Made by a program: the position numbers and the translations under genes. Below are positions 8,104 through 23,686 of a stretch of DNA of 27,049 nt, one piece after another. How positions within the stretch are numbered: the first letter of the stretch is position 1; each line of letters starts with the position of its first letter. The notes under the pieces were generated by a model. That model saw only the letters and a list, made by a program, of their open reading frames with translations, was not told the origin of the DNA and did not search any database. Source of the stretch: Desulfobacteraceae bacterium (lineage in GTDB: Bacteria; Desulfobacterota; Desulfobacteria; Desulfobacterales; UBA11574); contig JABMQM010000339.1 in the NCBI GenBank assembly GCA_013203195.1, forward strand, positions 1 through 27,049. Reading direction: 5' to 3'.

Positions 8104-8119
8104 TGGCACATCTTTTGCA
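8104..8119 (+). promoter_or_regulatory. sigma-54 promoter P2
   Basis: TGGCACATCTTTTGCA is a perfect TGGCAC-N5-TTGCA match, 86 nt upstream of the pseB start. Confidence 0.85.
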
Positions 8120-8205
8120 AATCATTAAAGTTGATTTGAAAGTTGAATTAAACTTTTTAACCCTTTCACACGATATGCTTTAAAAGGACTGCTAAGGAGA
8201 CTTAG

Positions 8206-9546
8206 ATGACATACAGAATCCAAAAAGTGAGCGACAAACTAGAAGTTCCACGGTCAACTATCCGGTACTGGGAAAAGGAATTCCCTCAACTTGTGAACCC
8301 CAAAAGGACCAATGGCGGGCAGAGGAGATATTCCGAGCAGGATATCGGCAATTTGCATAATATTAAGAACCTGCTCCATCATAAGAACAAAACCATTGAC
8401 GAAGCCAGGATTGTTCTAAAACAGGGGAATACTGACGTAGGCAAGATTGACTGGCAAAATCAATCCATTCTCCTGACCGGCGGTACCGGCTCTTTTGGAA
8501 AACACTTTTGCAAAATAATGATTGAGAAATACCGCCCCAAGGTCATACGAATATACAGCCGGGATGAACTAAAGCAGCATGAAATGCGGCAGCAATTTGG
8601 CGAAGAGTATATAAGGTATTTTATCGGCGATGTGCGTGACTCCGATCGTATGAGAAGGGCCATGGAAGGGGTCGATATCGTTGTGCACGCCGCTGCTTTA
8701 AAGCAGGTCCCGGCCTGCGAATACAATCCGCTTGAAGCGGTAAAGACTAATATTCACGGCGCCCAGAACGTGATTGACGCCGCCATTGATGTAGGCGTCA
8801 GCAAGGTCATCGCCTTGAGCACTGATAAGGCTGTCAATCCGGTCAATTTGTACGGCGCCACCAAGCTTTGTGCTGATAAGATCATCATTCAGGGAAATGC
8901 TTATTCAGGACCGAGAGGCACAATATTCAGCTGCGTGCGCTATGGAAACGTCATTGGAAGTCGAGGCAGCGTCATCCCTCTGTTTACAAAACAAAGAAAA
9001 ACCGGAAAGATAACCATAACCGACAGACGCATGACAAGGTTCTGGCTTACTTTAGATCAAGCGGTTGAGCTTGTGTTGGACGGGTTTTGTCACATGCAGG
9101 GCGGAGAAATTTTTGTGCCCAAGATTCCGAGTATGAGGATCATGGATCTTGCCAAAGCGATAGCACCTGAATGCGACATTGAAATCATCGGAATACGGCC
9201 GGGAGAAAAAATACATGAGGCCCTTATTACCGAAGAAGAAGGCAGAAATACAGTGGATTATAACGGCATCTACGTCGTCATGCCGAACTATTCGTGGTGG
9301 ACCAGGAAAAACTATAAAAGCGGAAAAAAGTTGCCTAAAGGTTTTACTTATACGAGTGACAAAAATGATAAATGGTTGTCTGTGGAGGACTTAAAAGAGG
9401 TTATTTATGGCCCTGCTTCGATGGCAAATGATCCCGACACTAAACTAGCAACCGCAATTCACCATTTAAATGAAAAAATTATATTGAACCTGCTTAATTC
9501 GGAGGAATCTATCCCTGAAGTTAATAATCAATGGATTGCTAGTTGA
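8206..9546 (+). CDS. pseB: MerR-type HTH domain fused to UDP-GlcNAc 4,6-dehydratase (inverting), PseB
   Basis: aa 1-73 (YRIQKVSDKLEVPRSTIRYWEKEFPQLVNPKRTNGGQRRYSEQD) form a MerR wHTH. From about aa 85: ILLTGGTGSFG, HAAALKQVPACEYNP, STDKAVNPVNLYGATK, RYGNVIGSRGSVIP, MTRFWLTL, GIRPGEKIHE. RBS AAGGAG at 8194-8199. Confidence 0.92.
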   Translation: MTYRIQKVSDKLEVPRSTIRYWEKEFPQLVNPKRTNGGQRRYSEQDIGNLHNIKNLLHHKNKTIDEARIVLKQGNTDVGKIDWQNQSILLTGGTGSFGKHFCKIMIEKYRPKVIRIYSRDELKQHEMRQQFGEEYIRYFIGDVRDSDRMRRAMEGVDIVVHAAALKQVPACEYNPLEAVKTNIHGAQNVIDAAIDVGVSKVIALSTDKAVNPVNLYGATKLCADKIIIQGNAYSGPRGTIFSCVRYGNVIGSRGSVIPLFTKQRKTGKITITDRRMTRFWLTLDQAVELVLDGFCHMQGGEIFVPKIPSMRIMDLAKAIAPECDIEIIGIRPGEKIHEALITEEEGRNTVDYNGIYVVMPNYSWWTRKNYKSGKKLPKGFTYTSDKNDKWLSVEDLKEVIYGPASMANDPDTKLATAIHHLNEKIILNLLNSEESIPEVNNQWIAS

Positions 9547-9600: not shown

Positions 9601-10953
9601 ATGAACGCTGTTCAACATCTTAAATTTAAAAATTTAGAAGCGATACCACCTGAAGACCAACGCAGCTTTATCCCCTATGGTCGTCAATGGATCGATGAAG
9701 AAGATATCAAGGCCGTAGAAAACGTCTTGAGATCAGACTATCTAACCCAAGGTCCGAAGGTCAGGGAATTTGAGGAAGCTTTTGCTCAGTACGTAGGCTC
9801 TCGTTACGCTGTTGCCGTTTGCAGCGGGACGGCCGCGCTTCACCTGGCTTGCTTGGCGGCGGATTTGGGGCCCGGAGATGAAATCCTGACATCTCCGATC
9901 ACTTTCGCGGCAACGGCAAACAGTGCCCTATATGTGGGGGCCAAACCTGCCTTTATTGATATTGATCCTGAGACGTTCAATCTTGATGTTAAAACTCTTG
10001 AAACCTATCTGGAAGAAAAAACGTCTCCAAATCGCGGGCGTCAATCCAGCACCTCTGGTGAGCCTTATCCTCGTGCAGTTATACCGGTTCACTTCGGAGG
10101 GCTTCCCTGTGATATGCCGGCGATTCAAAGCATCGCCCAAAAGCACGGGTTGGTTGTGATTGAAGACGCCTGCCATGCTTTAGGCGCAACCTATCGGCAT
10201 CAAGAAACCGCTAACGGCAAACAGAGATCAAAAGGGAACAAGTGGATCAAGGTGGGTAGTTGCATGCATTCCGACATGACTGTTTTCAGCTTTCACCCGG
10301 TCAAGCACATTACTACAGGTGAAGGCGGTATGGTAACAACCAACAGCGCGGAATTTTATCAGAGACTTGTTCTTTTCAGAAACCACGGCATCGCCCGCGA
10401 TGTCGACAAATTCAGCGATGAGCTTTTGGCCATGGATTCGGAAAACCAGCTGTCCGGTTTCGATCGGCGCATGATGCCTTCGTGGTATTACGAAATGCAG
10501 GGGCTGGGTTTCAATTACCGCATTAATGATATTCAATGTGCGCTGGGCATATCACAGCTAAAAAAAATTGATTATTTCATCCGGCGCCGGCGTTTTATTG
10601 CAGAGCAATATTTAAAGTTTTTAGATAGTATCCCCTGCTTTTCCATACAGATAGAACCGGAGGGCTATAAATCTTCGTATCACCTATATGTTTTATGCTT
10701 AGATGCCCAGACAAAAATTAAAAGAGACCAGGTCATTAACATCTTAAAACAGATGGGTATCGGCACACAGGTTCATTACATTCCGGTCTATCAACATCCG
10801 TTTTACCGGCAGTTGGGGTATGAAGAACAAAAATGCAGCAATGCCGAAAACTATTTTAAAAACTGTTTTTCTATTCCCATGTATCCGGCAATGTCCAACG
10901 AAGATATCAATCGAGTGATGAATGCACTCGAAAAAGTAGGGGGGATGCTTTAG
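9601..10953 (+). CDS. pseC: UDP-4-amino-4,6-dideoxy-N-acetyl-beta-L-altrosamine transaminase (DegT/DnrJ family)
   Basis: FIPYGRQWIDEEDI, LTQGPKVREFE, EDACHALGA, SFHPVKHITTGEGG (PLP lysine), WYYEMQGLGFNYR and QVHYIPVY motifs; directly follows pseB. Confidence 0.9.
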   Translation: MNAVQHLKFKNLEAIPPEDQRSFIPYGRQWIDEEDIKAVENVLRSDYLTQGPKVREFEEAFAQYVGSRYAVAVCSGTAALHLACLAADLGPGDEILTSPITFAATANSALYVGAKPAFIDIDPETFNLDVKTLETYLEEKTSPNRGRQSSTSGEPYPRAVIPVHFGGLPCDMPAIQSIAQKHGLVVIEDACHALGATYRHQETANGKQRSKGNKWIKVGSCMHSDMTVFSFHPVKHITTGEGGMVTTNSAEFYQRLVLFRNHGIARDVDKFSDELLAMDSENQLSGFDRRMMPSWYYEMQGLGFNYRINDIQCALGISQLKKIDYFIRRRRFIAEQYLKFLDSIPCFSIQIEPEGYKSSYHLYVLCLDAQTKIKRDQVINILKQMGIGTQVHYIPVYQHPFYRQLGYEEQKCSNAENYFKNCFSIPMYPAMSNEDINRVMNALEKVGGML

Positions 10954-12063
10954 ATGAACTTTACCATTGTTCCTCTCAACGGAGAACACTACGATGATTG
11001 GGATGCCGTATGTCGGGCCAGCCAAAATGCCTGGTTTTGGCATACCACGCAATGGCTGGACTATACAGAAGCCTATAATCCGGCCCTTGAAAGCAAGTCC
11101 TGCTCCTTTCTTTTATATGACAATTCTAGTGCTGTCGCTGCCGTGCCGCTACTAATGGAAAGAATTCAAAATGGGAAGGCAGCCTTTTTAGAATTTTCAT
11201 TCGGTGGCGGGTGGCTGCCGTCACCGGTATGTATCGCCGGGCTTTCATCAAAAAAAGAGAAGCAAATCTTTAAAGCTGCTTTTGATCATATCTTTGCACT
11301 TGCCCGTGATAAAAATATTGCCAGAATCAGGTGCCGATCGAATCCTTTTGTGCATCTGCAATCCGAAATGGCAGCCTTTATTCCAACGACAGTTAAATAT
11401 GGATTTGCTCCCTATCTCTTGCCGACTCAAATCATCGATGTAACCAAGAACCCGGCCATTCTTTTCAAGGAAATGCGCAAAGGTCACCGCAGCGACATTA
11501 AAAAGGCCGAAAAAAAATTGGAGAGCTTTGTCATTTCAAGCGAGAATATTTCATACGACCTTTTTTCAGCATATCGGCAGCTTCATACCAAAGCTGCCGG
11601 TGGTCAAACGCGGCCTGCGGAGACGTTTGAGATGATGTATGAATGGATAAAAAATGGGTTTGGAATCCTTTTTGGGGCCACGCTGGACGGTAGACCGGTA
11701 AGCTTTGCTTACGTAAATACTTATAAAGATTGTGCGTATTATAGTTCAGCCTGTAATGATCCGGGAATTCAAAACCTTCCTTTAGCTCATTTTGTTCAGT
11801 GGCAAATCGTAAAGTGGCTGCATGAGCAAAATTTTAACTACTACGAGATCGGCTGGCAGTTTTATTCAAATACCGAAATTTTTACGGCATCGGCCAAGGA
11901 AATTGCTATTTCCAGATTTAAAAGAGGGTTTGGCGGCGTAACCGTCCCCATTGTATTTTCCGAGAAATTTTTTTCCCGGCAGGATTATACAGCCATAAGC
12001 CGGGAGCGCATGGAAAATTTTTCCAAGGTATTACCAGAATTGACTGCGTGCTCTGCCAATTAG
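10954..12063 (+). CDS. GNAT-fold protein of FemAB/X-like type (putative aminoacyl/acyl transferase)
   Basis: WDAVCRASQNAWFWHTTQW, EMRKGHRSDIKKAEKK, HFVQWQIVKWLHEQNFNYYEIG and ISRFKRGFGG match the FemAB-like double-GNAT pattern. Confidence 0.7.
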   Translation: MNFTIVPLNGEHYDDWDAVCRASQNAWFWHTTQWLDYTEAYNPALESKSCSFLLYDNSSAVAAVPLLMERIQNGKAAFLEFSFGGGWLPSPVCIAGLSSKKEKQIFKAAFDHIFALARDKNIARIRCRSNPFVHLQSEMAAFIPTTVKYGFAPYLLPTQIIDVTKNPAILFKEMRKGHRSDIKKAEKKLESFVISSENISYDLFSAYRQLHTKAAGGQTRPAETFEMMYEWIKNGFGILFGATLDGRPVSFAYVNTYKDCAYYSSACNDPGIQNLPLAHFVQWQIVKWLHEQNFNYYEIGWQFYSNTEIFTASAKEIAISRFKRGFGGVTVPIVFSEKFFSRQDYTAISRERMENFSKVLPELTACSAN

Positions 12064-12080
12064 ACCAAGGAAATTGTACT

Positions 12081-13553
12081 GTGAAAGTTCTCTTTTTTAA
12101 TTATGCAAATTATTTAGAGATTGGAATCCCCGGCGGTATTGCAATCTTGAGTGCACTGCTCAAAGAAAGCGGGCATCAGGTTCGGCTTTTTGACACCACG
12201 TTTCTTAAGCCGGCGTATTACCGACGGAGTCAAAATGCCGGCCCCGCCGTCTTCAAGGAGACGCCCTATACCCTTGAAGACCGCGTTGAAGATGATCCGG
12301 TTGTGGATCTGAAGGAAGAATTCTCAAACATACTAAAAGAATTTCAGCCGGATCTTTTGGCTGTGTCGGCCATGACGACGAATTTCGATAAAACCCTGGA
12401 TTTATTGAAACAGGTACAACCGGACTGCTTGGTTGTGATGGGCGGGGTGCATGCCACGCTGGAACCCGAAGAAGTGCTGCGTTCTGAAGTAGTAGATATG
12501 GTCTGTATCGGCGAAGGGGAAGGCGCACTTGTGGATCTATGCAATGCCTTAGACGCGGGGCAAGAAACCCGCAACATTCCGAACCTGTGGTTAAAACGCA
12601 ACGGCAACTTGATTCAAAACACCCTGCGTCACTTTCAAAACCTTGATCATATACCTGTTCCGGACTGGTCCATCTTTGATCAAAGGCACCTTTTTCGGCC
12701 GTTCGAAGGCAAGGTTTACAAAGGTTCTTTTATAACGAATTCGCGCGGCTGCCCTGAACGGTGCACGTATTGTGTTAATAAAGTGATCCGCAAAACCCAT
12801 CGTGGCTGCGGGAGCTATTTTCGCCGTCAGTCCCCTCAAAAAACCATTAACAACATTAAAACGTTAAAAGAAGAATATGGCGCTACATGGTTTAAATTTG
12901 CAGACGATACTTTTCTACTCCACACTCATGCGGAACTAGAAACTTTAAAAGACGGTTTAAATGATCTTTCGATAAATTTTGGCTGTTCTGTACAGCCCAC
13001 AACAATTAACAAAGAGAAAGTGGCTCTCGCAAAGAAAATGGGTTGTGTGGCAATGACCGTGGGCATCGAAAGCGGCAATCAGGAAATAAGGAGAAAAATT
13101 CTCAATCGCAGGATTTCCAACCAAAAGCTTGAAAACGGAATCCGTACCATCATTGATGCCGGCATCCGGGTCTCAACCTTCAACATGATCGGTTTGCCGG
13201 GAGAGACTCGAGAAAATGTTTTCGAAACCATTAAATTTAATAAAAAGCTGGGTATAAAGGCGGCAAACGTATACATCATTTATCCTTTCCCGGGAACGGA
13301 AATCGCTGAAATCCATAAAACAAATTACCGCGATGCGGATGGCAAGATGATTTCCATGGGCGAGGCCGCCAGATTCAATCTTTCCCACATGTCTCCGGCA
13401 GAACTGGAGGGGTTGTGCAAAACTTTTAATCTTTATCTAACCCTGCCGGAAACATACTGGGGACAGATCAAGGCGGCTGAAGGTCAGGATGAACGATCAC
13501 AGCAAATATTTCAGGAGCTTGAGGTGCTGGCAAACACGTTTATTTCGTCCTGA
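12081..13553 (+). CDS. Cobalamin-binding radical SAM protein (class B methylase-like)
   Basis: N-terminal B12-binding region (DLLAVSAMT...VVMGGVHAT...DMVCIGEGE); SRGCPERCTYC CxxxCxxC motif at 12750-12773; FADDTF, GIESGN, MIGLPGET. GTG start at 12081 with AAGGA upstream. Confidence 0.85.
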   Translation: MKVLFFNYANYLEIGIPGGIAILSALLKESGHQVRLFDTTFLKPAYYRRSQNAGPAVFKETPYTLEDRVEDDPVVDLKEEFSNILKEFQPDLLAVSAMTTNFDKTLDLLKQVQPDCLVVMGGVHATLEPEEVLRSEVVDMVCIGEGEGALVDLCNALDAGQETRNIPNLWLKRNGNLIQNTLRHFQNLDHIPVPDWSIFDQRHLFRPFEGKVYKGSFITNSRGCPERCTYCVNKVIRKTHRGCGSYFRRQSPQKTINNIKTLKEEYGATWFKFADDTFLLHTHAELETLKDGLNDLSINFGCSVQPTTINKEKVALAKKMGCVAMTVGIESGNQEIRRKILNRRISNQKLENGIRTIIDAGIRVSTFNMIGLPGETRENVFETIKFNKKLGIKAANVYIIYPFPGTEIAEIHKTNYRDADGKMISMGEAARFNLSHMSPAELEGLCKTFNLYLTLPETYWGQIKAAEGQDERSQQIFQELEVLANTFISS

Positions 13554-13573
13554 AATTCAGAAGGTTCCAGGCA

Positions 13574-14596
13574 ATGGCGTTTAAAGCAGAACATAACATG
13601 AAAATAGCCGTCATCGGTTGCGGCTCCATTGGGAAACGGCATATTCGCAACCTCCTTGCTCTGGGGGTGCATGATATTATCGCTTATGATAAGGACGCCA
13701 AGCAACTGGCTGCCGTGGAGACTGATACTGGAATCAGAGCACTTCATTCGTTACCTGAGATTATATCTCGCAAGCCTGATGCAGTCCTTGTCTGTACGCC
13801 CAACAGTCTGCACGTTCCGGTTGCTTTCAAGTTTGCAAAAATTGGCTCCCAGCTATTTATTGAAAAACCCTTATCCCATAATTTAGACGGAGTGGATCAA
13901 CTGCTCGCAGAAGTTAATGAGCAGAAACTTATCACAATGGTTGGCTGTAATTTTAAGTTCCATCCAAGCTTTATAAAAATGAAAGCAATCCTTGAGTCCG
14001 GGATTCTAGGCAAAATACTTTCCGCTCGCTGCCAGTTCGGGCAATATCTTCCAGACTGGCATCCCTGGGAGGATTACCGTACAGGCTATAGTGCCCGATC
14101 CGATCTTGGCGGCGGCATCCTATTAGATTCTCATGAATTCGATTACATGCAATGGTTCTTGGGAGATGTGTCGGAGCTGTTTTGTTTTGCCGGAAAAGTC
14201 AGCAACCTCGAAATTGACACCGAAGACACCGCCGAAGTTCTGATCAAATTCCAAAACGGCACGATTGCCGGAATTCACCTGGATTATACTCAACGGGCCT
14301 ATCAACGAAATTATGAGTTTTTCGGAGAAAACGGCACTTTGAAATGGGATTTTCAGGAACGCAAAGTGTGGCTCTATCTGGCAAGTGAAAATAAATGGGA
14401 GGTTTTCGAGGAGCCCAGAAATTATAATTTAAATGAAATGTACACAGAAGAAATGAAGCACTTCATAGAATCGATTATGAATGAAAAGGAAACCATTACG
14501 GACATTTTTGCCGGTTGGAGGACGCTGAAACTTATCATGGCTGCCAAGGCATCGGCAGAGGATGGTAAAATGAAAAAGTTTGGGGAGGTTTGCTGA
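13574..14596 (+). CDS. Gfo/Idh/MocA-family NAD(P)-dependent oxidoreductase
   Basis: KIAVIGCGSIGKRH, IEKPLS and GGGILLDSHEFD motifs. An alternative start is the ATG at 13598. Confidence 0.88.
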   Translation: MAFKAEHNMKIAVIGCGSIGKRHIRNLLALGVHDIIAYDKDAKQLAAVETDTGIRALHSLPEIISRKPDAVLVCTPNSLHVPVAFKFAKIGSQLFIEKPLSHNLDGVDQLLAEVNEQKLITMVGCNFKFHPSFIKMKAILESGILGKILSARCQFGQYLPDWHPWEDYRTGYSARSDLGGGILLDSHEFDYMQWFLGDVSELFCFAGKVSNLEIDTEDTAEVLIKFQNGTIAGIHLDYTQRAYQRNYEFFGENGTLKWDFQERKVWLYLASENKWEVFEEPRNYNLNEMYTEEMKHFIESIMNEKETITDIFAGWRTLKLIMAAKASAEDGKMKKFGEVC

Positions 14597-14597
14597 G

Positions 14598-16649
14598 ATG
14601 GTGCTAGCGATTATCCAGGCGCGAATGGGTTCCACGCGCCTTCCGGGTAAAGTCCTGGCCGACATTAACGGAGCGCCGATGCTTTGGCATGTAATGCATC
14701 GGGTGCAAAGCGCTCGCTCTATCGATCACGTTGCCGTGGCTACTTCTAATAATTCTGTTGACGACCCTCTAGTTGAATTTTGTCTAAAAAATGACTATCA
14801 GTTTTTCCGTGGTAGTGAAACTGATGTCCTTGATCGCTTCTACCAGGCTGCCAAGCGATTCAAAGCTAAAGTCGTAGTTCGCATTACCGCCGATTGTCCG
14901 CTCATTGATTCTCTCGTTATCGACAAGGTCGTAAAGACTTACCTTCAAGGGGATTATGATTATGTTACCAACACTCTGCATTATACCTATCCCGACGGCG
15001 TTGATGTGGAAGTGTTTTCCTTTGCGGCGCTGCAAACAGCCTGGCAGGAGGCCAAATCGCCTCTGGAACGGGAGCATGTGACCCCTTACCTGCGGAACTC
15101 AGAGGCATTTAAGATACACAACGTTGAAAACGAGGTTGACCTGTCCGGCCGCTACCTGCGCTGGACAGTAGACGAACCTTGTGATTTGGAATTCGTTCGT
15201 GCCGTCTATGAAAAAACCGCTTCAGTAGGTTTGTATTTTGGCATCGAAGCTGTATTGCGACTACTTGATCAGGAGCCCGATCTTGCGGAAATCAATAAGG
15301 GAATCATTTGCAATAATGGTTACTATAAATCTATTGCCAACGAAACTCCGGTTGCAGCCCTAAACCGGAAACTGACTCTATCTGGTAAACTCAAAGCCAA
15401 GGCTGCACAGCTTATACCTTCAGGCACCCAGACTTTCAGCAAAGGGCCTACGCAATTTGTCCAGGGCGTAGCACCGGTATTTTTAAAGCGCGCTGAAGGG
15501 AGCCATGTGTGGGATGTGGACGGCAACGAGTATATTGATTTTCCCATGGCCCTGGGACCGATTATTTTGGGCCATAACTATCCTGCCGTAACCGCAGCCG
15601 TCATTCGCCAGATCCATGACGGAACTATTTTTTCTTTGCCCCATCCGCTGGAAGTTGAGTTGGCTGAAATGCTGGTTGAGTCCATACCGTGTGCCCAGAT
15701 GGTTCGTTTCGGAAAGAACGGCTCCGACGCCACCGCCGGGGCTGTGCGGGTGGCCCGTGGTTATACCGGAAAAGATATTATCGCCTGCTGCGGATATCAT
15801 GGCTGGCAGGACTGGTATATTGGAACCACAACTCGAAATAAAGGTGTCCCCGAAACCGTCGAGAAACTGACTGTTAGCTTTGAATATAACAACATTTCCA
15901 GCCTGGAGCGCATATTTTCCGAGCATCCCGGCCAGGTGGCTGCGGTAATAATGGAGCCTGTCGGTGTAATTGAGCCTGAAGAAGGCTTCTTGCAGCATGT
16001 ACGAGAGATAACAAATAAAAATGGAGCACTTTTGATCTTTGATGAAGTAATCACCGGCTTTCGCCTGGCTTTAGGTGGTGCCCAGGACTACTACGGAGTC
16101 ACGCCTGATCTTGCGTGTTTCGGCAAGGCCATGGCCAACGGTTATCCGCTTTCAGCAATCGTCGGACGGCGGGACGTTATGGAATGTTTCGACGAGGTAT
16201 TTTTTTCCTTTACGTTTGGCGGTGAAACCCTTTCTTTGGCAGCAGCAAAAGCAACCATCTCTGAGATGAAAGAAAAAAGTGTCATCAGCCACCTCTGGGA
16301 GCAGGGTCAGAAGGTAAAAGACGGCTACAATGTTTTGGCACAAGAGTTTGGTGTTAATGATTTTACAGAGTGCATCGGGTTGCCTCCGCGTACGTTGATT
16401 ACCTTTAAAGATGAGACCGGAAACGAATCCTTACTGTATAAAAGTCTGTTTCAGCAGGAATGCTTGAAGCGGAGGGTGCTCTTTTCGGGGGGCCAAAACA
16501 TCTGTTTTGGACATAGTAACGCCGACATTGACCACACCCTGCGGGTTTATCGCACGGCCATGGAGATTTTAGCCGCTGCCGTTAAAAACGGAGATGCCCG
16601 GCAAAGACTTGAGGGTGAACCTGTCAGTCTTGTTTTCAGAAAACCATAA
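14598..16649 (+). CDS. SpsF-type cytidylyltransferase (PseF role) fused to a class III (glutamate-1-semialdehyde aminomutase-like) aminotransferase
   Basis: N-terminal LAIIQARMGSTRLPGKVL, VVRITADCPLID, EREHVTPY, WTVDEPCDL. From about nt 15372: WDVDGNEYIDF, RFGKNGSDAT, LIFDEVITGFR, CFGKAMANG (PLP Lys codon 16125-16127). RBS GGAGG at 14584-14588. Confidence 0.88.
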   Translation: MVLAIIQARMGSTRLPGKVLADINGAPMLWHVMHRVQSARSIDHVAVATSNNSVDDPLVEFCLKNDYQFFRGSETDVLDRFYQAAKRFKAKVVVRITADCPLIDSLVIDKVVKTYLQGDYDYVTNTLHYTYPDGVDVEVFSFAALQTAWQEAKSPLEREHVTPYLRNSEAFKIHNVENEVDLSGRYLRWTVDEPCDLEFVRAVYEKTASVGLYFGIEAVLRLLDQEPDLAEINKGIICNNGYYKSIANETPVAALNRKLTLSGKLKAKAAQLIPSGTQTFSKGPTQFVQGVAPVFLKRAEGSHVWDVDGNEYIDFPMALGPIILGHNYPAVTAAVIRQIHDGTIFSLPHPLEVELAEMLVESIPCAQMVRFGKNGSDATAGAVRVARGYTGKDIIACCGYHGWQDWYIGTTTRNKGVPETVEKLTVSFEYNNISSLERIFSEHPGQVAAVIMEPVGVIEPEEGFLQHVREITNKNGALLIFDEVITGFRLALGGAQDYYGVTPDLACFGKAMANGYPLSAIVGRRDVMECFDEVFFSFTFGGETLSLAAAKATISEMKEKSVISHLWEQGQKVKDGYNVLAQEFGVNDFTECIGLPPRTLITFKDETGNESLLYKSLFQQECLKRRVLFSGGQNICFGHSNADIDHTLRVYRTAMEILAAAVKNGDARQRLEGEPVSLVFRKP

Positions 16650-16651
16650 AC

Positions 16652-18214
16652 ATGAAAAAAGGTGAAACCAACCGCAACCAAATTGTTTTTCGAGCCGATG
16701 CCGATACCAGTATGGGCACCGGTCATCTCATGCGCTGCCTGGCTTTGGCCCAGGCGTGGCAGGACACCGGTGGCCAAGCGACGTTTTTGACAGTATCAAA
16801 CTCCTTGATGCTTAACGGCCGGTTGCAATCAGAAGGTATGGTTGTAAAGCATCTTAAAACCCCGCTAGCCGGTTATGAGGATGCCTTGCAGACGGCCGCG
16901 CTTGCAAAAGAGATAAATGCATCCTGGATCGTGTTGGACGGTTACCAATTTGATGGCGTCTATCAAAAAACCTTAAAGGATAAGGGTGTATCTCTCTTGT
17001 TTATAGACGATTTCGGTCACGCCGGTCACTACTCTGCGGATATTGTGCTGAATCAAGGCATCCATGCTGCTACGAATTTATATCCCCATAAAGAACCTTA
17101 TACCCAACTTTTACTCGGCCTCCGCTATGCGCTATTACGGAGGGAATTTTTAAGCTATCAGGGTTGGAAGCGGGAGAATCCGGACGTAGCCAGAAAAATA
17201 CTGGTAACCTTGGGCGGTGGAGATCCGGATAATGTAACCAAAAAAGTCGTGCGGGCGATACAGCAACTTGAAGCAGAAAACTTAGAAGTCTTCGTTGTTG
17301 TCGGCAGCAATAATCCGCATTATGAAGAACTGGAATCTATTGCCGGCCCTTCGCCGTTTTATATTAGTTTATTACAGAACGTGACCGACATGCCGGCCCT
17401 GATGGCCTGGGCGGATATGGCTGTTTCGGCCGGAGGTGGCACCTGTCTGGAAATGGCATATATGGGACTGCCAAACATAGTCATGGTGTTGGCGGAAAAT
17501 CAGCAGGGCAACGCTGAAAGTCTGGGGTCTTCCGGTATTTCCATAAATTCAGGGTGGCACAATGAGGTTGATGAGCTTGGTCTTGCAAAGACCTTAAGCA
17601 TGCTGATTTCAAATCAGATGCTTCGTAAAGAAATGAGTGCCAAGGCACAGGAATTGGTGGACGGCACCGGAACGAGTCATATCTCGTCGCTTATTGATAA
17701 ACTATCACGGCAATGCCGGGTCACAGACGATATAAGGGTGCGCCGTGCCTGCATTCAGGATGGCGAACTGCTTTGGAAATGGGCCAATGATTCAAGTGTC
17801 CGTGCTAATGCATTTCATGCCGATAAGATTCCCCTAAAAGAACATCTCCGGTGGTATCAAAATAAGCTGAACTCTCCGGACACACTTATATGGATACTAG
17901 AGCTTGGCAGTCAACCTGTTGCTCAAATACGATATGATCGAGTGGAACCGGCTACAGCAGAAATAGATATTTCCGTGACAGCCGATTGTCGCGGCATGGG
18001 TTTAGGCATCAAAGCACTGGTTTTAACCGCGGATATTTCAGGCAGAGAACTTGGTGTTAAGCATATAAAAGGGATTGTGTTTGCTTCCAACAAGGCATCT
18101 TCACGCGCATTTACTAAAGCCGGTTTTAAGCTCGCCGGCCGGGAAAAAGTTTCTGACAAGCTTTGCGATATTTTTATTCGAGAATGTGCTGAAACGGCAA
18201 GGGAGGCCTGTTGA
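16652..18214 (+). CDS. pseG: PseG (UDP-2,4-diacetamido-2,4,6-trideoxy-beta-L-altropyranose hydrolase) fused to a PseH-like GNAT N-acetyltransferase
   Basis: FRADADTSMGTGHLMRCLALA, IVLDGY, LVTLGGGD and ADMAVSAGGGT motifs. From nt 17732 a GNAT domain follows (LLWKWANDSSVR...HLRWY...GQ-like AQIRYD...RGMGLG...NKASSRAF). Confidence 0.9.
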   Translation: MKKGETNRNQIVFRADADTSMGTGHLMRCLALAQAWQDTGGQATFLTVSNSLMLNGRLQSEGMVVKHLKTPLAGYEDALQTAALAKEINASWIVLDGYQFDGVYQKTLKDKGVSLLFIDDFGHAGHYSADIVLNQGIHAATNLYPHKEPYTQLLLGLRYALLRREFLSYQGWKRENPDVARKILVTLGGGDPDNVTKKVVRAIQQLEAENLEVFVVVGSNNPHYEELESIAGPSPFYISLLQNVTDMPALMAWADMAVSAGGGTCLEMAYMGLPNIVMVLAENQQGNAESLGSSGISINSGWHNEVDELGLAKTLSMLISNQMLRKEMSAKAQELVDGTGTSHISSLIDKLSRQCRVTDDIRVRRACIQDGELLWKWANDSSVRANAFHADKIPLKEHLRWYQNKLNSPDTLIWILELGSQPVAQIRYDRVEPATAEIDISVTADCRGMGLGIKALVLTADISGRELGVKHIKGIVFASNKASSRAFTKAGFKLAGREKVSDKLCDIFIRECAETAREAC

Positions 18215-19260
18215 TGAGTTTTATTGAAATCAATGGCCGCAGAATAGCAAAAGGCCATCCAGCTTACATCATTGCTGAAATGTCAGCCAACCATAATCAG
18301 GATTTTGCAAAAGCCGTCAGAATTATTGAAGCGGCCCAAAAAGCGGGTGCCGATGCGATCAAACTCCAGACCTACACACCGGACACAATTACCATCGACT
18401 GCGACAATGAATATTTCAAAATCCAAGGAACTATCTGGGCGGGGAAGAATCTGTATCAGCTTTATGGAGAAGCTTTTACACCCTGGGAATGGCAACCAAA
18501 GCTCAAAGAAGTTGCCGACAAACTGAAGATTGATATCTTTTCTACTCCCTTTGATTCAAGCGCTGTTGATTTCTTGGAGAAGATGAATGTACCTGCATAC
18601 AAGGTGGCCTCATTCGAGAATGTAGATATTCCACTGTTGGAAAAAATCGCCTGTACCGGCAAGCCGATTATCATGTCAACCGGAATGGCGACACTTGGTG
18701 AAATCGATGAAGCGGTCCGGACAATCAGGCAGGCAATGAACAACCAGCTGGCTTTGCTCAAATGCACCAGTGCTTACCCGGCTCCGCCGGAAGAAGTCAA
18801 TCTAAAAACCATCAATCATTTGAGCGAAGCTTTTGACGTTCCCACCGGCCTGTCCGATCATACTATGGGTAGCGCTGTAGCTGTAGGGGCGGTGACACTG
18901 GGTGCGTGTATTGTTGAAAAGCACTTCACACTGTCCAGGAAAGATCCAGGGCCGGACAGTGCCTTTTCCATGGAGCCGCATGAATTTAAAACTATGGTGG
19001 AGGATATTCGGACCATAGAAAAGGCACTGGGGAAAGTATGTTATGGCATCACTGAAAAACAGAGAGAAAGCAGGGCATTTCGGCGTTCTTTGTTTGTGGT
19101 GGAAGATGTCAAGGTCGCAGAGGAATTTACGCAAACAAATGTACGTTCCATTAGGCCGGGTAACGGGCTGCATACCAGGTACCTGACAAAAATTATCGGC
19201 AAGAAAGCTGCTACAAACATTGCCGGAGGCACTCCACTATCATGGGACTTATTAGGATAA
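18214..19260 (+). CDS. pseI: Pseudaminic acid synthase (NeuB family with C-terminal SAF domain)
   Basis: IIAEMSANHNQD, AIKLQTYTPDT, TPWEWQPKL, FSTPFD, IMSTGMA, LLKCTSAYP, GLSDHT, EKHFTL and SIRPGNGL motifs; TGATG overlap with pseG; RBS GGGAGG. Confidence 0.92.
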   Translation: MSFIEINGRRIAKGHPAYIIAEMSANHNQDFAKAVRIIEAAQKAGADAIKLQTYTPDTITIDCDNEYFKIQGTIWAGKNLYQLYGEAFTPWEWQPKLKEVADKLKIDIFSTPFDSSAVDFLEKMNVPAYKVASFENVDIPLLEKIACTGKPIIMSTGMATLGEIDEAVRTIRQAMNNQLALLKCTSAYPAPPEEVNLKTINHLSEAFDVPTGLSDHTMGSAVAVGAVTLGACIVEKHFTLSRKDPGPDSAFSMEPHEFKTMVEDIRTIEKALGKVCYGITEKQRESRAFRRSLFVVEDVKVAEEFTQTNVRSIRPGNGLHTRYLTKIIGKKAATNIAGGTPLSWDLLG

Positions 19261-19263
19261 AGT

Positions 19264-20076
19264 ATGCACAACAAAGCAAGGATACTTAGCACTGCACAAA
19301 ATGCTTCCCATCTAAAAGGGCGCATTGAAGCCAATCAAGATCAACAGACAGATCTGAATCATTGGATCTTCAGTCTTCTATCGGTACAAGAAGGTTGGAA
19401 GGTTCTTGAGCTGTGCTGTGGCACGGGAGCACAGACAACTTATCTGGCAGAAAAAGTGGGGCCAAAAGGCCATATTTGGGCTCTCGATATATCTGTCGAA
19501 GCTCTGGAACATATCGATAAAACGCTCGGCAAACAATATCTCAACCGTATTACAACCATGGAAGTCGATCTGGACAATTTTTCAGGTCAACTGGCAAGAA
19601 GAGGATTCGTTGAGCCCTGTTTTGATCTGATTTTTTGTTCTTATGGATTGTATTATTGTTCCAATATTCAAGAGACCTTGGCTGAGATTGAAAGATGGCT
19701 AAGACCAAACGGGAAAATTGCGATTGTTGGTCCTTTTGGACCAAACAACGAGCCGCTTTACGACATTTTGCATAAAAATGGTGTGGTGATATCCGAGTAT
19801 GTGATGCACACCAGTAAAACTTTCATGACCTTTGATGTTGTCCCTTGGGCGTCTGAAAAATTTGAGCATGTCTCCATCCATCCCCTGGTAAATCCTGTTG
19901 TCTGGGAAAGTGCTGAGACACTAATGAAATATTGGAAAAACTCGACTTTTTACGATGAAACCAAGCTCGATTCGGTTCGTTTTCATGCTGAGAAACACTT
20001 TCGACAAGCTGGCCGGTTTGTGAATGAAAAATGGGTCATGTTGTTGGTGGCAGAGCACAAGCGCCGCCTAAGGTAA
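19264..20076 (+). CDS. Class I SAM-dependent methyltransferase
   Basis: Motif I KVLELCCGTG, post-I ALDIS, FDLIFCSYGLY and LRPNGKIAI. Confidence 0.85.
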   Translation: MHNKARILSTAQNASHLKGRIEANQDQQTDLNHWIFSLLSVQEGWKVLELCCGTGAQTTYLAEKVGPKGHIWALDISVEALEHIDKTLGKQYLNRITTMEVDLDNFSGQLARRGFVEPCFDLIFCSYGLYYCSNIQETLAEIERWLRPNGKIAIVGPFGPNNEPLYDILHKNGVVISEYVMHTSKTFMTFDVVPWASEKFEHVSIHPLVNPVVWESAETLMKYWKNSTFYDETKLDSVRFHAEKHFRQAGRFVNEKWVMLLVAEHKRRLR

Positions 20077-20089
20077 AAAGGTATGACCG

Positions 20090-20818
20090 TTGGATAACAA
20101 AAGTAATTCGAAAAATCGATATTTAGTGGTCGCTGCCCATCCCGATGACGAAGTACTTGGTTGCGGCGGCACGATTGCCCGCCTGGCACAGGAAGGCCAT
20201 CAGGTCTATATTGCCATTTTGGGAGAAGGGGTCACATCTCGCTACGCCCAGCGCGAAGAGGCGGATAAAACAATGGTGGCGACGCTTCGTGCTCATAGCC
20301 ATAAAGTAAAAGAATTATTATGCGCCAAGGACCTGTTCATCTTCGATCTGCCCGACAACCGTTTCGATACGATACCCCTGTTGGAAGTGGTGAAAATCAT
20401 CGAAAGCTTGATCGAACGTCTGCAACCGGAGGTTGTATACACTCAACACGGCGGTGACCTTAACATAGATCACGTTATCACCCATCGTGCCGTACTTACC
20501 GCAACCCGTCCGATTTCAGGCTGCCCGGTAAAAAAGCTTTATGCCTATGAGGTCCCCTCATCTACTGAATGGGCCTTTGCACAGTTTGCACCGGCTTTCC
20601 GGCCCAATGTGTTTGTGGATATCAGCACAACCCTCGACACAAAGATAAAAGCAATGCAAATTTACGAAAGTGAAGCCCGCCCATTTCCTCATCCGCGATC
20701 ACCGGAAGCCTTGCGCGTTACTGCGCAACGGTGGGGAAGCGTTGTCGGCCTGGTTGCGGCGGAAGCATTCGAGTTAATCTACAGCCTAAAACACTCTATC
20801 GTAAAAGAGGAAACATAA
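20090..20818 (+). CDS. PIG-L/LmbE-family N-deacetylase
   Basis: VVAAHPDDEVLGCGGTI (HxDD metal motif), DLNIDH, FVDISTTLDTKIKAM and AEAF; TTG start. Confidence 0.9.
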   Translation: MDNKSNSKNRYLVVAAHPDDEVLGCGGTIARLAQEGHQVYIAILGEGVTSRYAQREEADKTMVATLRAHSHKVKELLCAKDLFIFDLPDNRFDTIPLLEVVKIIESLIERLQPEVVYTQHGGDLNIDHVITHRAVLTATRPISGCPVKKLYAYEVPSSTEWAFAQFAPAFRPNVFVDISTTLDTKIKAMQIYESEARPFPHPRSPEALRVTAQRWGSVVGLVAAEAFELIYSLKHSIVKEET

Positions 20819-21052: not shown

Positions 21053-21068
21053 TGGCACACATTTTGCA
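21053..21068 (+). promoter_or_regulatory. sigma-54 promoter P3
   Basis: TGGCACACATTTTGCA is a perfect TGGCAC-N5-TTGCA match in the roughly 400-nt gap before module 3. Confidence 0.85.
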
Positions 21069-21228
21069 AATATACTTTGCTTGAAAGTTGAATTTAAGAT
21101 TTGCAATTTTTTGTGCCGAATAAAACGGATAGCCAGCAGCAGTAGTTGTTTGTTAATTGGAGACAGAGGAAGTTAACATCATGTTTTGTTTAAAAATATA
21201 ACCACCCGGACATCGAGAGGAGTCATTG

Positions 21229-23685
21229 ATGGAAATGAAAAACCTATCTGTTTGTATCGTGGGAAAGGATAAAGCAGAGGTTCTCAAACAGTGTATTGAA
21301 TCTTGTTTGAAAATAACCGACCAGATATCATATGTTGATCTGGAATCAAACGACAACAGTATCCATGTCGCAAAAGAATGCGGCATTTACGTTTTGAATG
21401 GCAAATCATTTCAAAAGGCGCCTGAAACGTTTAAGGAATTCAATAAATCGAATTGGACTCTTTTTTTGAGGCCTGATGAAAAGATTATATATGAATCCGA
21501 AGCGCAAATCACAGAGATCCTGGATAAAAGCGATACCATGGGATATAGTCTCATTATAAACACCCCCATATCGCCTGAAACGTTTGAAGATTACCGATGG
21601 ATTAAAATCCCCGGAAAGCCGGACAGCTATTCCCCCGAAGCATTAATCGTTCCGAAAATTGAAATCAGGCTGGTACGAAAACAATTCTTTGCCAAGGCTC
21701 TCAATCTTATGATTTCGTTTTCTCCGGACAGAGTTTATTCCTTTGACAGCAAAATAATTAAAGATATCCAGATTCATTCACTGGAAGATAATGTTCAAGA
21801 GGAGATAACCCCCGAAGATACTAAAGATTTGGAAATGAAATTTCTCAGGGGAGAGGTATCCGTAGATGCTGAGGAAGATTATGGCATGTGGGAACTTGGA
21901 GACCGTTTTATCGGCTACAACATTTTGAACACGGGTGATCTGTCCCGATATTATCGGGGACTTGCCATGGGATTTGGAAGTGAAAGCATGTATGTGGCTA
22001 TGCTCAACGTGCTTGCAAAATATGGCAGATTCAACGAAGCTCGGGAATTTTTTGATGCCTGGCAGGAAAAATGGGGCATTTTTGATACACCTGAACCTTA
22101 TAAATTCGGAGGAATCATTTATGCACACCTGTTTCAACTGGAAAGGGCAGTTTCATTCTTTCATAAATATTTGGAATTGGCTTCCGAAGAACTTGCTGGA
22201 GAGGCTCGCCTTTTATTGGCAAAATCGCTGCTGCTTCTGGGCAAAAAAGACGAAGCAATTAAACTTTTTAAGCAATCGCTTCGCCACCATATGGACGATT
22301 TAGACCGCGCCCTTATCCAAACAATCGAAGATGCTAACTGGAAGCCACCCAGACTTAGCTTATGTATGATTGTAAAAGATGAGGAGGCAAATATCTCCCA
22401 AACTCTTGATTCCGTAACAGGCATAGTCGACGAAATCATTGTTGTGGATACAGGATCTCAAGACGAAACAAAAGATATCGCAAGGAAATTTAATGCGAAA
22501 ATCATAGACATCGACTGGGAAGATAATTTTTCAAAAGCTAGAAACGCCGGGCTCCGGAGTGCGACGGGCGATTACATTCTATGCCTCGATGCCGATGAAT
22601 ACATAGACCCCAGAGAAAGAATAAAACTGGCCCTTTTTAAAATGATTTTGCCTTCCGAACGGGATGTTGCCTTCCGGGTAAAGATAGATATGGAAGATCC
22701 GGATGAAGAACTATCGGATATATGGCGCCTTCCCAATACGATTCAACCCGATTACCAGGTAAGACTTGTACCGGCTCGAAAGGAGATCTCTTTCGAAGGA
22801 TTTGCTTTTGAGAGCATGGACAAATCCATTACGGATCTCGGAATAAAAATGGTAACCAATGAAGTGGTTAAGATCACCCACTCAGAAACTGACCGTAAAT
22901 GGAGAGACCTACGCAAAGAAAAGGCCGTTGAGAAGATCTATGATACCGGTCCCGATCCGGAAACCGCCCTGCAAGCGGCTTTATACAATCTAAAACTTGG
23001 AAATCCTAGTACGGCATTGAAATGGCTTGACCTGGCTCAATTTGATAATCCTCGCCTCTGGATGAAAATTATCACCCTTTATTGCAGACTGGGCCAGACA
23101 AAAAATGTTGCTGGGATTATAAGAAAAGCCCTCAGAGAATTTCCGGATTCTCTGGAATTGTGTTTGGCAAAAGCAGAACTTCATTTCGTAGAGGGCGAAC
23201 ATGAGATCGTTTATAAAACTCTTGATCCGAATATGGAAAAAATTGAAAAAGAAATGTCCAGAGAGGATCGCGCAAGTGCCGCGTATCTTTATGGCATGGC
23301 TTTGCTGGAGAGAGGCAATCTGGGAAAAGGTATTGAATTGTTATCCGATGCCCGCGAATTGGGTTCCTGGAATATGCGTTACAAGATAGGAGGTATTTAC
23401 GCCCTTACGATAGCAGAGGAGTGGGAAAGTGCAATTCGTGCCCTTTCCGAGGTCTTGAAAGAAGAAAACCTGGCAATTATGGATACGATCGATGATTTTG
23501 CCGATCTGGGGATCGTTTTTAAGAAACTCGGTAGTCATTTTGAAATCAATGGCAGGGTAGAAGCTTCAGAGCTATGCCAAAAAATATTTCTGAACATTAT
23601 TGAAACCAAGTTATCCGATCCGGAAGATATAGAAAAATTAACCCATTATTTAGATACGCACAATATTGGGAAGGAGCAACCTTAG
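21229..23685 (+). CDS. Tandem GT2 (degenerate) - TPR - GT2 (intact) - TPR glycosyltransferase
   Basis: N-terminal LSVCIVGKDKAEVLKQCIES...FLRPDE. A second domain from nt 22354 has LSLCMIVKDEE...VVDTGSQD...FSKARN...CLDADE. TPR-like helices lie between and after. RBS AGGAG at 21218-21222. Confidence 0.85.
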   Translation: MEMKNLSVCIVGKDKAEVLKQCIESCLKITDQISYVDLESNDNSIHVAKECGIYVLNGKSFQKAPETFKEFNKSNWTLFLRPDEKIIYESEAQITEILDKSDTMGYSLIINTPISPETFEDYRWIKIPGKPDSYSPEALIVPKIEIRLVRKQFFAKALNLMISFSPDRVYSFDSKIIKDIQIHSLEDNVQEEITPEDTKDLEMKFLRGEVSVDAEEDYGMWELGDRFIGYNILNTGDLSRYYRGLAMGFGSESMYVAMLNVLAKYGRFNEAREFFDAWQEKWGIFDTPEPYKFGGIIYAHLFQLERAVSFFHKYLELASEELAGEARLLLAKSLLLLGKKDEAIKLFKQSLRHHMDDLDRALIQTIEDANWKPPRLSLCMIVKDEEANISQTLDSVTGIVDEIIVVDTGSQDETKDIARKFNAKIIDIDWEDNFSKARNAGLRSATGDYILCLDADEYIDPRERIKLALFKMILPSERDVAFRVKIDMEDPDEELSDIWRLPNTIQPDYQVRLVPARKEISFEGFAFESMDKSITDLGIKMVTNEVVKITHSETDRKWRDLRKEKAVEKIYDTGPDPETALQAALYNLKLGNPSTALKWLDLAQFDNPRLWMKIITLYCRLGQTKNVAGIIRKALREFPDSLELCLAKAELHFVEGEHEIVYKTLDPNMEKIEKEMSREDRASAAYLYGMALLERGNLGKGIELLSDARELGSWNMRYKIGGIYALTIAEEWESAIRALSEVLKEENLAIMDTIDDFADLGIVFKKLGSHFEINGRVEASELCQKIFLNIIETKLSDPEDIEKLTHYLDTHNIGKEQP

Positions 23686-23686
23686 A

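Follow-up and report, generated by a model that had tools for sequence, protein, structure and literature searches.

A MerR-type winged helix-turn-helix fused to PseB in the Desulfobacterota: a candidate enzyme-regulator and the box array upstream of its gene

The fused gene, its product and its distribution

We analysed a 27,049-nucleotide stretch of a Desulfobacteraceae bacterium (UBA11574; GCA_013203195.1, contig JABMQM010000339.1, positions 1–27,049 of the + strand), hereafter the window, which belongs to a metagenome-assembled genome (MAG) that is 80% complete; all features are given on the + strand. Our subject is the gene at 8206–9546, whose 446-residue product joins a MerR-type winged helix-turn-helix (HTH) to PseB, the inverting UDP-N-acetylglucosamine (UDP-GlcNAc) 4,6-dehydratase, as judged from the open reading frame (ORF), Pfam, NCBIfam and homologues. 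Its ATG lies immediately 3′ of an in-frame TAG at 8203 and is preceded by the ribosome-binding site AAGGAG (8194–8199). The N-terminal residues 3–73 (8212–8424) match MerR_1 (PF13411; E 4e-19, 68.9 bits against a gathering cut-off of 21.6), and residues 88–359 match Polysacc_synt_2 (E 2e-104). Residues 84–399 (8455–9402) pass the cut-off of the PseB equivalog TIGR03589 (510.4 bits against 407.75, covering profile positions 3–323 of 324), and the catalytic motifs are intact: TGGTGSFG at residues 91–98 (GxxGxxG), STDKA at 205–209 and YGATK at 216–220 (YxxxK). These extended short-chain dehydrogenase/reductase (SDR) motifs are invariant or nearly so in 40 diverse fusions, and the solved structure nearest to this part is Helicobacter pylori FlaA1 (2GN4, E 1e-112). 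The C-terminal 320 residues are, by their sequence, most likely a functional PseB, which catalyses the first committed step of pseudaminic-acid synthesis. A preliminary description of this DNA, made from the letters alone, had read the locus as one ORF with a strong ribosome-binding site encoding a MerR-type HTH and a complete PseB, and the profile matches and intact motifs bear it out.

The AlphaFold2 (AF2) model of the HTH comprises helices 5–12, 16–25, 44–59 and 64–72 and a wing at 33–42, with a per-residue confidence (pLDDT) of about 90. The last of these helices (a4) is followed by a five-residue disordered linker (74–78) and then by the first Rossmann strand of a confidently predicted PseB body (87–91); there is no coiled coil. 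The helices, together with a Pfam match that ends at residue 73, support the earlier remark that the protein lacks both the coiled coil and the effector domain usual in MerR regulators. What had been called a linker between the two parts is another matter: in the junction (residues 74–83, 8425–8454), all but the disordered 74–78 is the native PseB N-terminus with its IDW motif, and unfused relatives begin M-x-N-I-D/N-W. At the other end, residues 400–446 (9403–9543) form a low-confidence helical tail (mean pairwise identity 24%, pLDDT <50). From codon 50 (8353) to codon 105 (8518) there is no in-frame ATG, GTG or TTG, so no separate PseB can be made from a canonical start; in that sense the claim that PseB cannot be made without the HTH holds. 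Rare CTG and ATT codons, none with a Shine-Dalgarno sequence, are the only non-canonical start options in this interval.

Contigs assembled from four sequencing runs cross the HTH/PseB junction (8295–9243) without indels, which answers the read check that had been proposed for it; the four runs come from one study and may be the assembly's own source data. Three of them also hold a second, lower-depth contig that matches just 8206–8274 and continues into unrelated DNA 5′ of the ATG (…GACAACCGTGAACGGAAAACGGAGTAAGAT), a sign of strain mosaicism.

The architecture is not peculiar to this genome. A MerR domain stands ahead of PseB in all but one of the 120 best-matching 90% clusters (119), at 71–100% identity. 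The complete HTH-plus-junction turned up in 49 genomes when a single genome per species was scanned. The hosts are nearly all Desulfobacterota (Desulfobacterales, Syntrophales, Desulfobulbales and a Desulfosudis oleivorans MAG), with one Zixibacteria-labelled MAG. Of 400 genomes sampled evenly from the phylum, nine have the fusion in addition to the window's own genome, and ~55 have an ordinary PseB. In its own genome, the fusion is the sole PseB found in the 80%-complete MAG. Databases call the fused proteins just 'UDP-N-acetylglucosamine 4,6-dehydratase (inverting)', a name that conceals the putative regulatory domain, and literature searches found no published description of a MerR-PseB fusion or of any other nonulosonic-acid enzyme-regulator.

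Across 40 diverse fusions, HTH residues S17, T18, R20, W22, F26, G37, R40, R41 and Y42 are invariant. The HTH has a pairwise ratio of non-synonymous to synonymous divergence (dN/dS) of 0.13 and is under purifying selection; the ratio for PseB is 0.06. Retention of the HTH by homologues and selection on it were among the points on which the preliminary description had made its proposal depend, and both are seen, in the 49 genomes and in the ratio of 0.13.

Some copies have a more complicated history. Between the window and Ca. Desulfatibia vada (L021), the HTH is 99% identical (synonymous divergence, dS, 0.23) and PseB 85% (dS 1.08), an identity contrast that suggests a recombination breakpoint inside the fusion gene. 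In three Logan samples (L176–L178, P0126) a decayed fusion consists of the HTH plus the first ~120 PseB residues (197 aa) and then a 96-aa PseB fragment, with pseC still next; from its sequence it looks like a pseudogenised copy. The fused gene of the Zixibacteria-labelled genome (L067, a Candidatus Zixiibacteriota MAG) clusters on a long branch with a Desulfobacteraceae copy (L033), which reflects either horizontal transfer or mis-binning.

The promoter and its AAAGTT-box array

The fusion is the first gene after a sigma-54 promoter, as had been noted: P2, TGGCACATCTTTTGCA, at 8104–8119 (TGGCAC-N5-TTGCA, 11/11 consensus positions), is one of three such promoters, all on the + strand and one heading each of three gene blocks. 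Immediately downstream lies an array of AAAGTT boxes. Box 1 (8127–8132) overlaps the expected sigma-54 transcription start and is fixed in position in the orthologues, 4–6 nt past the -12 element. Box 2 (8139–8144), 12 bp further on, lies within a 14-mer, TTGAAAGTTGAATT, that recurs at 21081–21094. Box 3, TAAACTTT (8149–8156), about 11 bp past box 2, corresponds to a sigma-28-type -35 element (consensus TAAAGTTT, the form that it takes in most orthologues). The spacings of 12 and 11 bp place the boxes on one face of the helix. Twelve nt past box 3 there is a -10-like element, CACGATAT (8169–8176), which matches the consensus GCCGATAA at 5/8 positions; it is weak in the window and strong (GCCGAAAA, GCCGATAT) in many orthologues. 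The classical FliA promoter is TAAAGTTT-N11-GCCGATAA. The window's TAAACTTT-N12-CACGATAT agrees with the sigma-28 type at 12/16 positions, a putative promoter called from its sequence alone. The pse operon is thus predicted to have tandem flagellar promoters: a sigma-28-type TAAAGTTT-N11/12-GCCGAWA comes about 45 nt after the sigma-54 -24/-12 element, both in the window (8104–8176) and in several orthologues (L022, L031, L032, L047 and others). The same genome contains about 33 good sigma-28 promoters, and none of them has the extra boxes 1 and 2. We also considered an RNA hairpin and rejected it: in the window the element can be paired as AAAGTT/AACTTT, but most orthologues have AAAGTT/AAGTTT, which cannot pair.

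An alignment of the upstream regions shows that the fused orthologues share, at most loci, TAAAGTT-N5-AAAGTT-N5-AAAGTTT at a fixed distance right after the sigma-54 -12, followed 11–12 nt past the array by GCCGAAA or GCCGATA. With a promoter called at ≥ 9/11 consensus positions, 36 of 45 fused orthologues and 23 of 44 unfused pseB genes are preceded by a sigma-54 promoter. A non-circular count at these loci gave a clear contrast: in the 60 nt past the promoter, AAGTT occurs zero, one, two or three times at 6, 7, 14 and 9 of the 36 fused loci, whereas the corresponding numbers for the 23 unfused loci are 22, 1, 0 and 0. Of the 36 fused loci, 23 have a sigma-28-like promoter after the sigma-54 promoter, and none of the 23 unfused loci does; nine fused orthologues deviate from the sigma-28 consensus at two positions or fewer. 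With a position weight matrix (PWM) of the array, about 29 fused loci score 28–47 bits and none of the 45 unfused loci exceeds -1.4, and an 18-mer core was found in 5/5 fused and 0/5 unfused genomes tested, with zero matches for the reversed control. The PseB tree places the unfused L072, L073/L075, L076 and L018 among the fused sequences, nested in their clade; these genes have kept the sigma-54 promoter and lack the boxes. The tree forces at least six changes between the fused and unfused states.

Among the 96 sigma-54-like promoters of its own genome, the element is confined to promoters of the island in which the fusion lies. The only other strong site (core 20.5 bits) is the second element-bearing promoter at 21053–21122, ahead of GT2-TPR, Maf and GT2-TPR genes. 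Here sigma-54 promoter P3 (21053–21068, 11/11) is followed by an inverted ACTTTG (21074–21079), an AAAGTT box (21084–21089) and sigma-28-like -35 and -10 elements, TTAAGATT at 21094–21101 and GCCGAATA at 21115–21122. At the third promoter (260–297), recognised by its sequence, P1 (260–275, 10/11) is followed by AAGT, AAAGTT and AAAGCT boxes with a 6-bp period. This tightly packed variant also occurs in some lineages, at orthologue L050 and before the stand-alone HTH gene of genome G034, which belongs to the group described next.

Searching 401 genomes of the phylum for a sigma-54 promoter followed within 4–25 nt by AAAGTTNAA gave 23 matches in 16 genomes, against 1 for the reversed pattern that served as control. 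Outside fused genomes, the pattern lies directly upstream of stand-alone MerR_1 genes encoding 113–116 residues (G034, G171, G316 and G388, plus a decayed copy in G342); a further match precedes a GT2 gene in G270. These proteins have the T(I/L)R(Y/F)WEKE helix and GGQRRY wing of the fusion, are about 30–35% identical to the window HTH, and differ in ending in a short conserved helix, RVAEVVK.EV..F, where the fusion has PseB. Like the fusion, their genes follow a sigma-54 promoter and AAAGTT boxes, with or without sigma-28 elements, and are the first genes of sugar operons, though of other ones: they are followed by a gene for a SIS isomerase, for a DegT aminotransferase or, with its start overlapping the HTH stop, for an SDR epimerase/dehydratase. 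None of sixteen housekeeping short MerR genes (GQRLY wing), which include this genome's own C357 paralogue, has either the sigma-54 promoter or the boxes. The array therefore tracks an HTH subfamily, whatever is attached to it. This also corrects the preliminary description, which had likened the HTH to the short ihfA-linked MerR type: that housekeeping type (the C357 paralogue, with a GQRLY/GHRLY wing) lacks the promoter, whereas the GGQRRY stand-alone genes carry it. To judge from the sequences, the fusion looks like the capture of an operon's first enzyme by the regulator gene leading it.

The HTH profile at E 1e-9 proved too broad to mark the box-linked subfamily, matching 114/401 genomes, and the top 'stand-alone' matches extending through residue 84 were in fact fusions in fragmentary or decayed form. 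Relatives of the HTH also occur in tandem within one protein (P0128, P0134, P0136, P0137, P0182): proteins of 200–220 aa have two copies, one of 506 aa has three, and one of 1070 aa has seven matched stretches. At locus L170 (G040:C40:227593-227610), a canonical MerR-family gene (143 aa) has a perfect palindrome, AAAGTTAAATTGAACTTT, between its TTGACC -35 and its -10; the sequence suggests a MerR operator of the classical kind, again with AAAGTT as half-site. Contig C266 of the window's genome (positions 268–320; L180) has a sigma-54 promoter and two AAAGTTG boxes before the gene of a 461-aa PAS-AAA+ sigma-54 activator; since its orthologues in five other fused genomes lack such a promoter, the match may be due to chance and we did not retain this gene as a member of the regulon. 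The 5′ untranslated regions of some fused pseB genes (L010–L013, L030) contain 150–300 nt of degenerate AACGGT/GACCGTT-type repeats between the promoter array and the start codon.

A candidate enzyme-regulator and its alternatives

Among solved DNA-binding domains, a profile search places MerR first and CarH/LitR second (E 4e-12), and the latter provides the closest precedent for the architecture. CarH lacks the MerR coiled coil and binds as a tetramer to three tandem 11-bp direct repeats, one of which holds the -35 (PMC9304148). Like CarH/LitR, the fusion has a MerR-type HTH without a coiled coil, a short flexible linker, and a partner domain that, by analogy, would bind ligand and oligomerise. 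The array at 8127–8156, three direct repeats spaced by 12 and 11 bp of which the third is a sigma-28-type -35, may be the counterpart of the CarH operator. The differences are equally clear: the partner is a B12 photoreceptor in CarH/LitR and a catalytic SDR enzyme in the fusion, in which Pfam finds no B12-binding domain; the CarH repeat is TnnACA rather than AAAGTT; and the promoters here are of the sigma-54 and sigma-28 types. By this analogy the fusion is probably an enzyme-regulator built on the CarH plan.

Canonical MerR regulators (MerR, CueR, SoxR, BmrR) differ more deeply, with a long a5 coiled-coil dimerisation helix and a C-terminal effector region that the fusion does not have. Their operator is a palindrome in an over-long sigma-70 -35/-10 spacer, whereas the window boxes are mainly direct repeats that follow a sigma-54 promoter and lie at or above a sigma-28 -35. 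BldC, a MerR-like HTH without coiled coil or effector domain, resembles the HTH of the fusion, and its MerR-like heads bind AT-rich direct repeats head-to-tail as multimers (PMC5859096). It is a small HTH-only protein that oligomerises via the HTH, unlike the 446-aa fusion with its attached enzyme domain; none of the PDB matches at E 0.001 or better is a chain named BldC. The characterised PseB/FlaA1 enzymes of Helicobacter and Campylobacter share with the fusion the equivalog cut-off, the catalytic motifs and the partners PseC, PseG/H and PseI, and differ in having no DNA-binding domain. PseB is reported to be a hexamer (Ishiyama 2006) and reportedly undergoes feedback inhibition by CMP-pseudaminic acid (CMP-Pse; McNally 2008).

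The wider class to which the fusion may belong is that of the 'trigger enzymes', enzyme-regulators such as BirA, PutA and NadR. TnrA and GlnR, MerR-like HTHs governed by the enzyme glutamine synthetase, offer a related case (PMC5859096). All of these, including the pairs that TnrA and GlnR make with glutamine synthetase, couple a pathway enzyme, by a covalent link or by physical contact, to a DNA-binding module for the same pathway, as the fusion appears to do, its regulatory role being predicted from sequence.

The reading that we favour is that the fusion binds the AAAGTT boxes and autoregulates the pse operon, its PseB part serving, in a CarH-like build, as the oligomerising body; we hold this to be rather likely. 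The HTH would come from a small subfamily of local regulators encoded by the first genes of sigma-54-driven sugar or glycosylation operons, and would read phased boxes lying between and over a sigma-54/sigma-28 promoter pair. Oligomeric PseB could hold several HTHs against the boxes on one face of the DNA, the role played by the B12 domain in CarH. Occupied boxes would then mask the sigma-54 start (box 1) and the sigma-28 -35 (box 3) and so repress the fusion's own operon and, in this genome, at least the Maf/glycosyltransferase operon at 21053. On the CarH analogy, repression is the most likely sign of the regulation. The preliminary idea of an enzyme-regulator thereby gains comparative support, in that the array travels with the HTH; the autoregulation that it also proposed is still a prediction from sequence.

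That earlier proposal further had a multivalent HTH display on a PseB hexamer, with DNA binding gated by UDP-GlcNAc or CMP-Pse. Both parts are speculative; the gating is an attractive thought that draws no support from the present results. In a fuller version, the oligomeric state or conformation of PseB, as set by NADP, UDP-GlcNAc or CMP-Pse, would decide whether the HTHs occupy the array and thus toggle the sigma-54 and sigma-28 promoters; we regard this switch as doubtful. If it did exist, it would be a checkpoint tying sugar-nucleotide pools to the flagellar transcription hierarchy, with the supply of the flagellin glycan donor setting promoter use.

Several observations weigh against box binding and autoregulation by the fusion. 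Some fused loci (L026, L033) lack the element within 800 nt, and the stand-alone relative G386 lacks the promoter. At fused loci of the Desulfobulbales type the array has diverged (PWM 0–7 bits) and the recognition helix is nearly unchanged. The 18-mer is single-copy outside our own genome, so a wider regulon is unsupported, and the AF2 model is uninformative on how the HTHs would be arranged in an oligomer. The element always adjoins HTH-coding DNA, and recombination is visible inside the HTH region; element and HTH could be gained and lost together through physical linkage or as one recombining block, and joint inheritance therefore explains part of their co-occurrence.

This last point also feeds an explanation in which the HTH does not read the boxes at all: the array would merely be a FliA promoter with A/T-rich phased repeats upstream that RNA polymerase reads, inherited in one block with an HTH whose role lies elsewhere. 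Box 3 plus GCCGAWA could simply be a FliA-type promoter, since it fits the TAAAGTTT-N11/12-GCCGATAA pattern that is abundant in this genome, and boxes 1 and 2 could be UP-like elements or a spare -35 for sigma-28 RNA polymerase; the constant proximity of the element to HTH-coding DNA and the breakpoints within the HTH region point the same way. This account has difficulty, however, with the roughly 33 good sigma-28 promoters that do without extra boxes, with arrays that stand before stand-alone HTH genes in unrelated operons and before a GT2 gene 13 kb from the HTH in the window, and with the boxes of L068 and L069, which have no -10. Moreover, the conservation of this intergenic DNA across orders despite saturated dS calls for a specific reader. 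We judge the explanation to be improbable. A serious, though still unlikely, alternative accepts that the HTH binds the boxes and makes it an activator or promoter switch, which would aid sigma-28 RNA polymerase from about -40 and -55 and block the sigma-54 start, carrying the operon from the middle to the late flagellar class. MerR-family regulators are often activators; boxes 1 and 2 fall between about -57 and -40 relative to the inferred sigma-28 start, where activators typically bind; the weak -10 of the window might need help; and these boxes are absent from the genome's ordinary sigma-28 promoters. Against activation, box 3 is the -35 itself, which in CarH means occlusion (PMC9304148), and L068 and L069, the most divergent fused loci, have AAGTT arrays in the absence of a sigma-28 -10.

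The two remaining alternatives concern the protein. The HTH might have given up DNA binding and persist for a structural or oligomerising role in PseB or as a protein-contact module, much as some MerR-like folds (the TnrA and GlnR partners) act by protein contacts (PMC5859096). The invariance of recognition-helix and wing residues (S17, T18, R20, R40, R41 and Y42) in the 40 diverse fusions, the dN/dS of 0.13 and the existence of stand-alone relatives that are hardly more than an HTH domain make this very improbable. Finally, an assembly or annotation artefact that wrongly joined two genes can be regarded as already refuted, given the indel-free contigs of four runs and the same architecture in over 100 independent clusters and 49 genomes.

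If the fusion does bind the boxes, an SDR sugar-nucleotide enzyme would join the short list of enzyme-regulators, and the CarH principle (a MerR head, a foreign oligomerising body and tandem direct repeats) would apply also to a metabolic enzyme and at sigma-54/sigma-28 promoters. Flagellar sigma factors alone are the usual explanation for the expression of nonulosonic-acid pathways; to our knowledge, and in the literature searched, there is essentially no description of regulators dedicated to flagellin glycosylation islands. The locus offers a concrete and cheap test system, one protein and a 50-bp DNA site; as natural controls there are unfused PseB relatives, which do not have the site, and stand-alone HTH relatives, which do.

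The surrounding operon and island

The rest of the operon (9601–20818, assigned by domain matches) encodes a PseC-type aminotransferase, a FemAB-like GNAT protein, a B12 radical SAM enzyme, a Gfo/Idh/MocA oxidoreductase, a cytidylyltransferase-aminotransferase, a PseG-PseH fusion, PseI (NeuB), a methyltransferase and a PIG-L deacetylase. The context expected of a pseudaminic-acid pathway is therefore present downstream in the same operon, as DegT aminotransferase, Glyco_tran_28_C plus GNAT fusion, NeuB and CTP_transf_3 matches. Glycosyltransferase operons flank the pse operon, and one of them holds Maf (MptE-like plus Maf_flag10_N) at 23666–25588. The genome also encodes FlhA and two FliA-type sigma factors, and in one orthologous locus (L036) FliW adjoins the fusion. 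The 80%-complete MAG yielded neither a flagellin N-terminal domain nor a C-terminal one; its flagellin genes may be unassembled. The locus may be a flagellin glycosylation island, as Maf, the pseudaminic-acid pathway, FlhA and the sigma factors would fit, but no flagellin substrate was found in this MAG.

The window gave no Rfam match, even at a permissive threshold. An unusually long untranslated stretch of ~535 nt (276–810) separates promoter P1 from the first glycosyltransferase gene and contains, at ~500–580, a G+C-rich segment with repeated GGCC…TTGAGG motifs. A comparable G+C-rich stretch, GGGGGCGGAGCCTG…GGCCTCGAGGA, lies 3′ of the boxes at the stand-alone HTH locus of G171 (L208).

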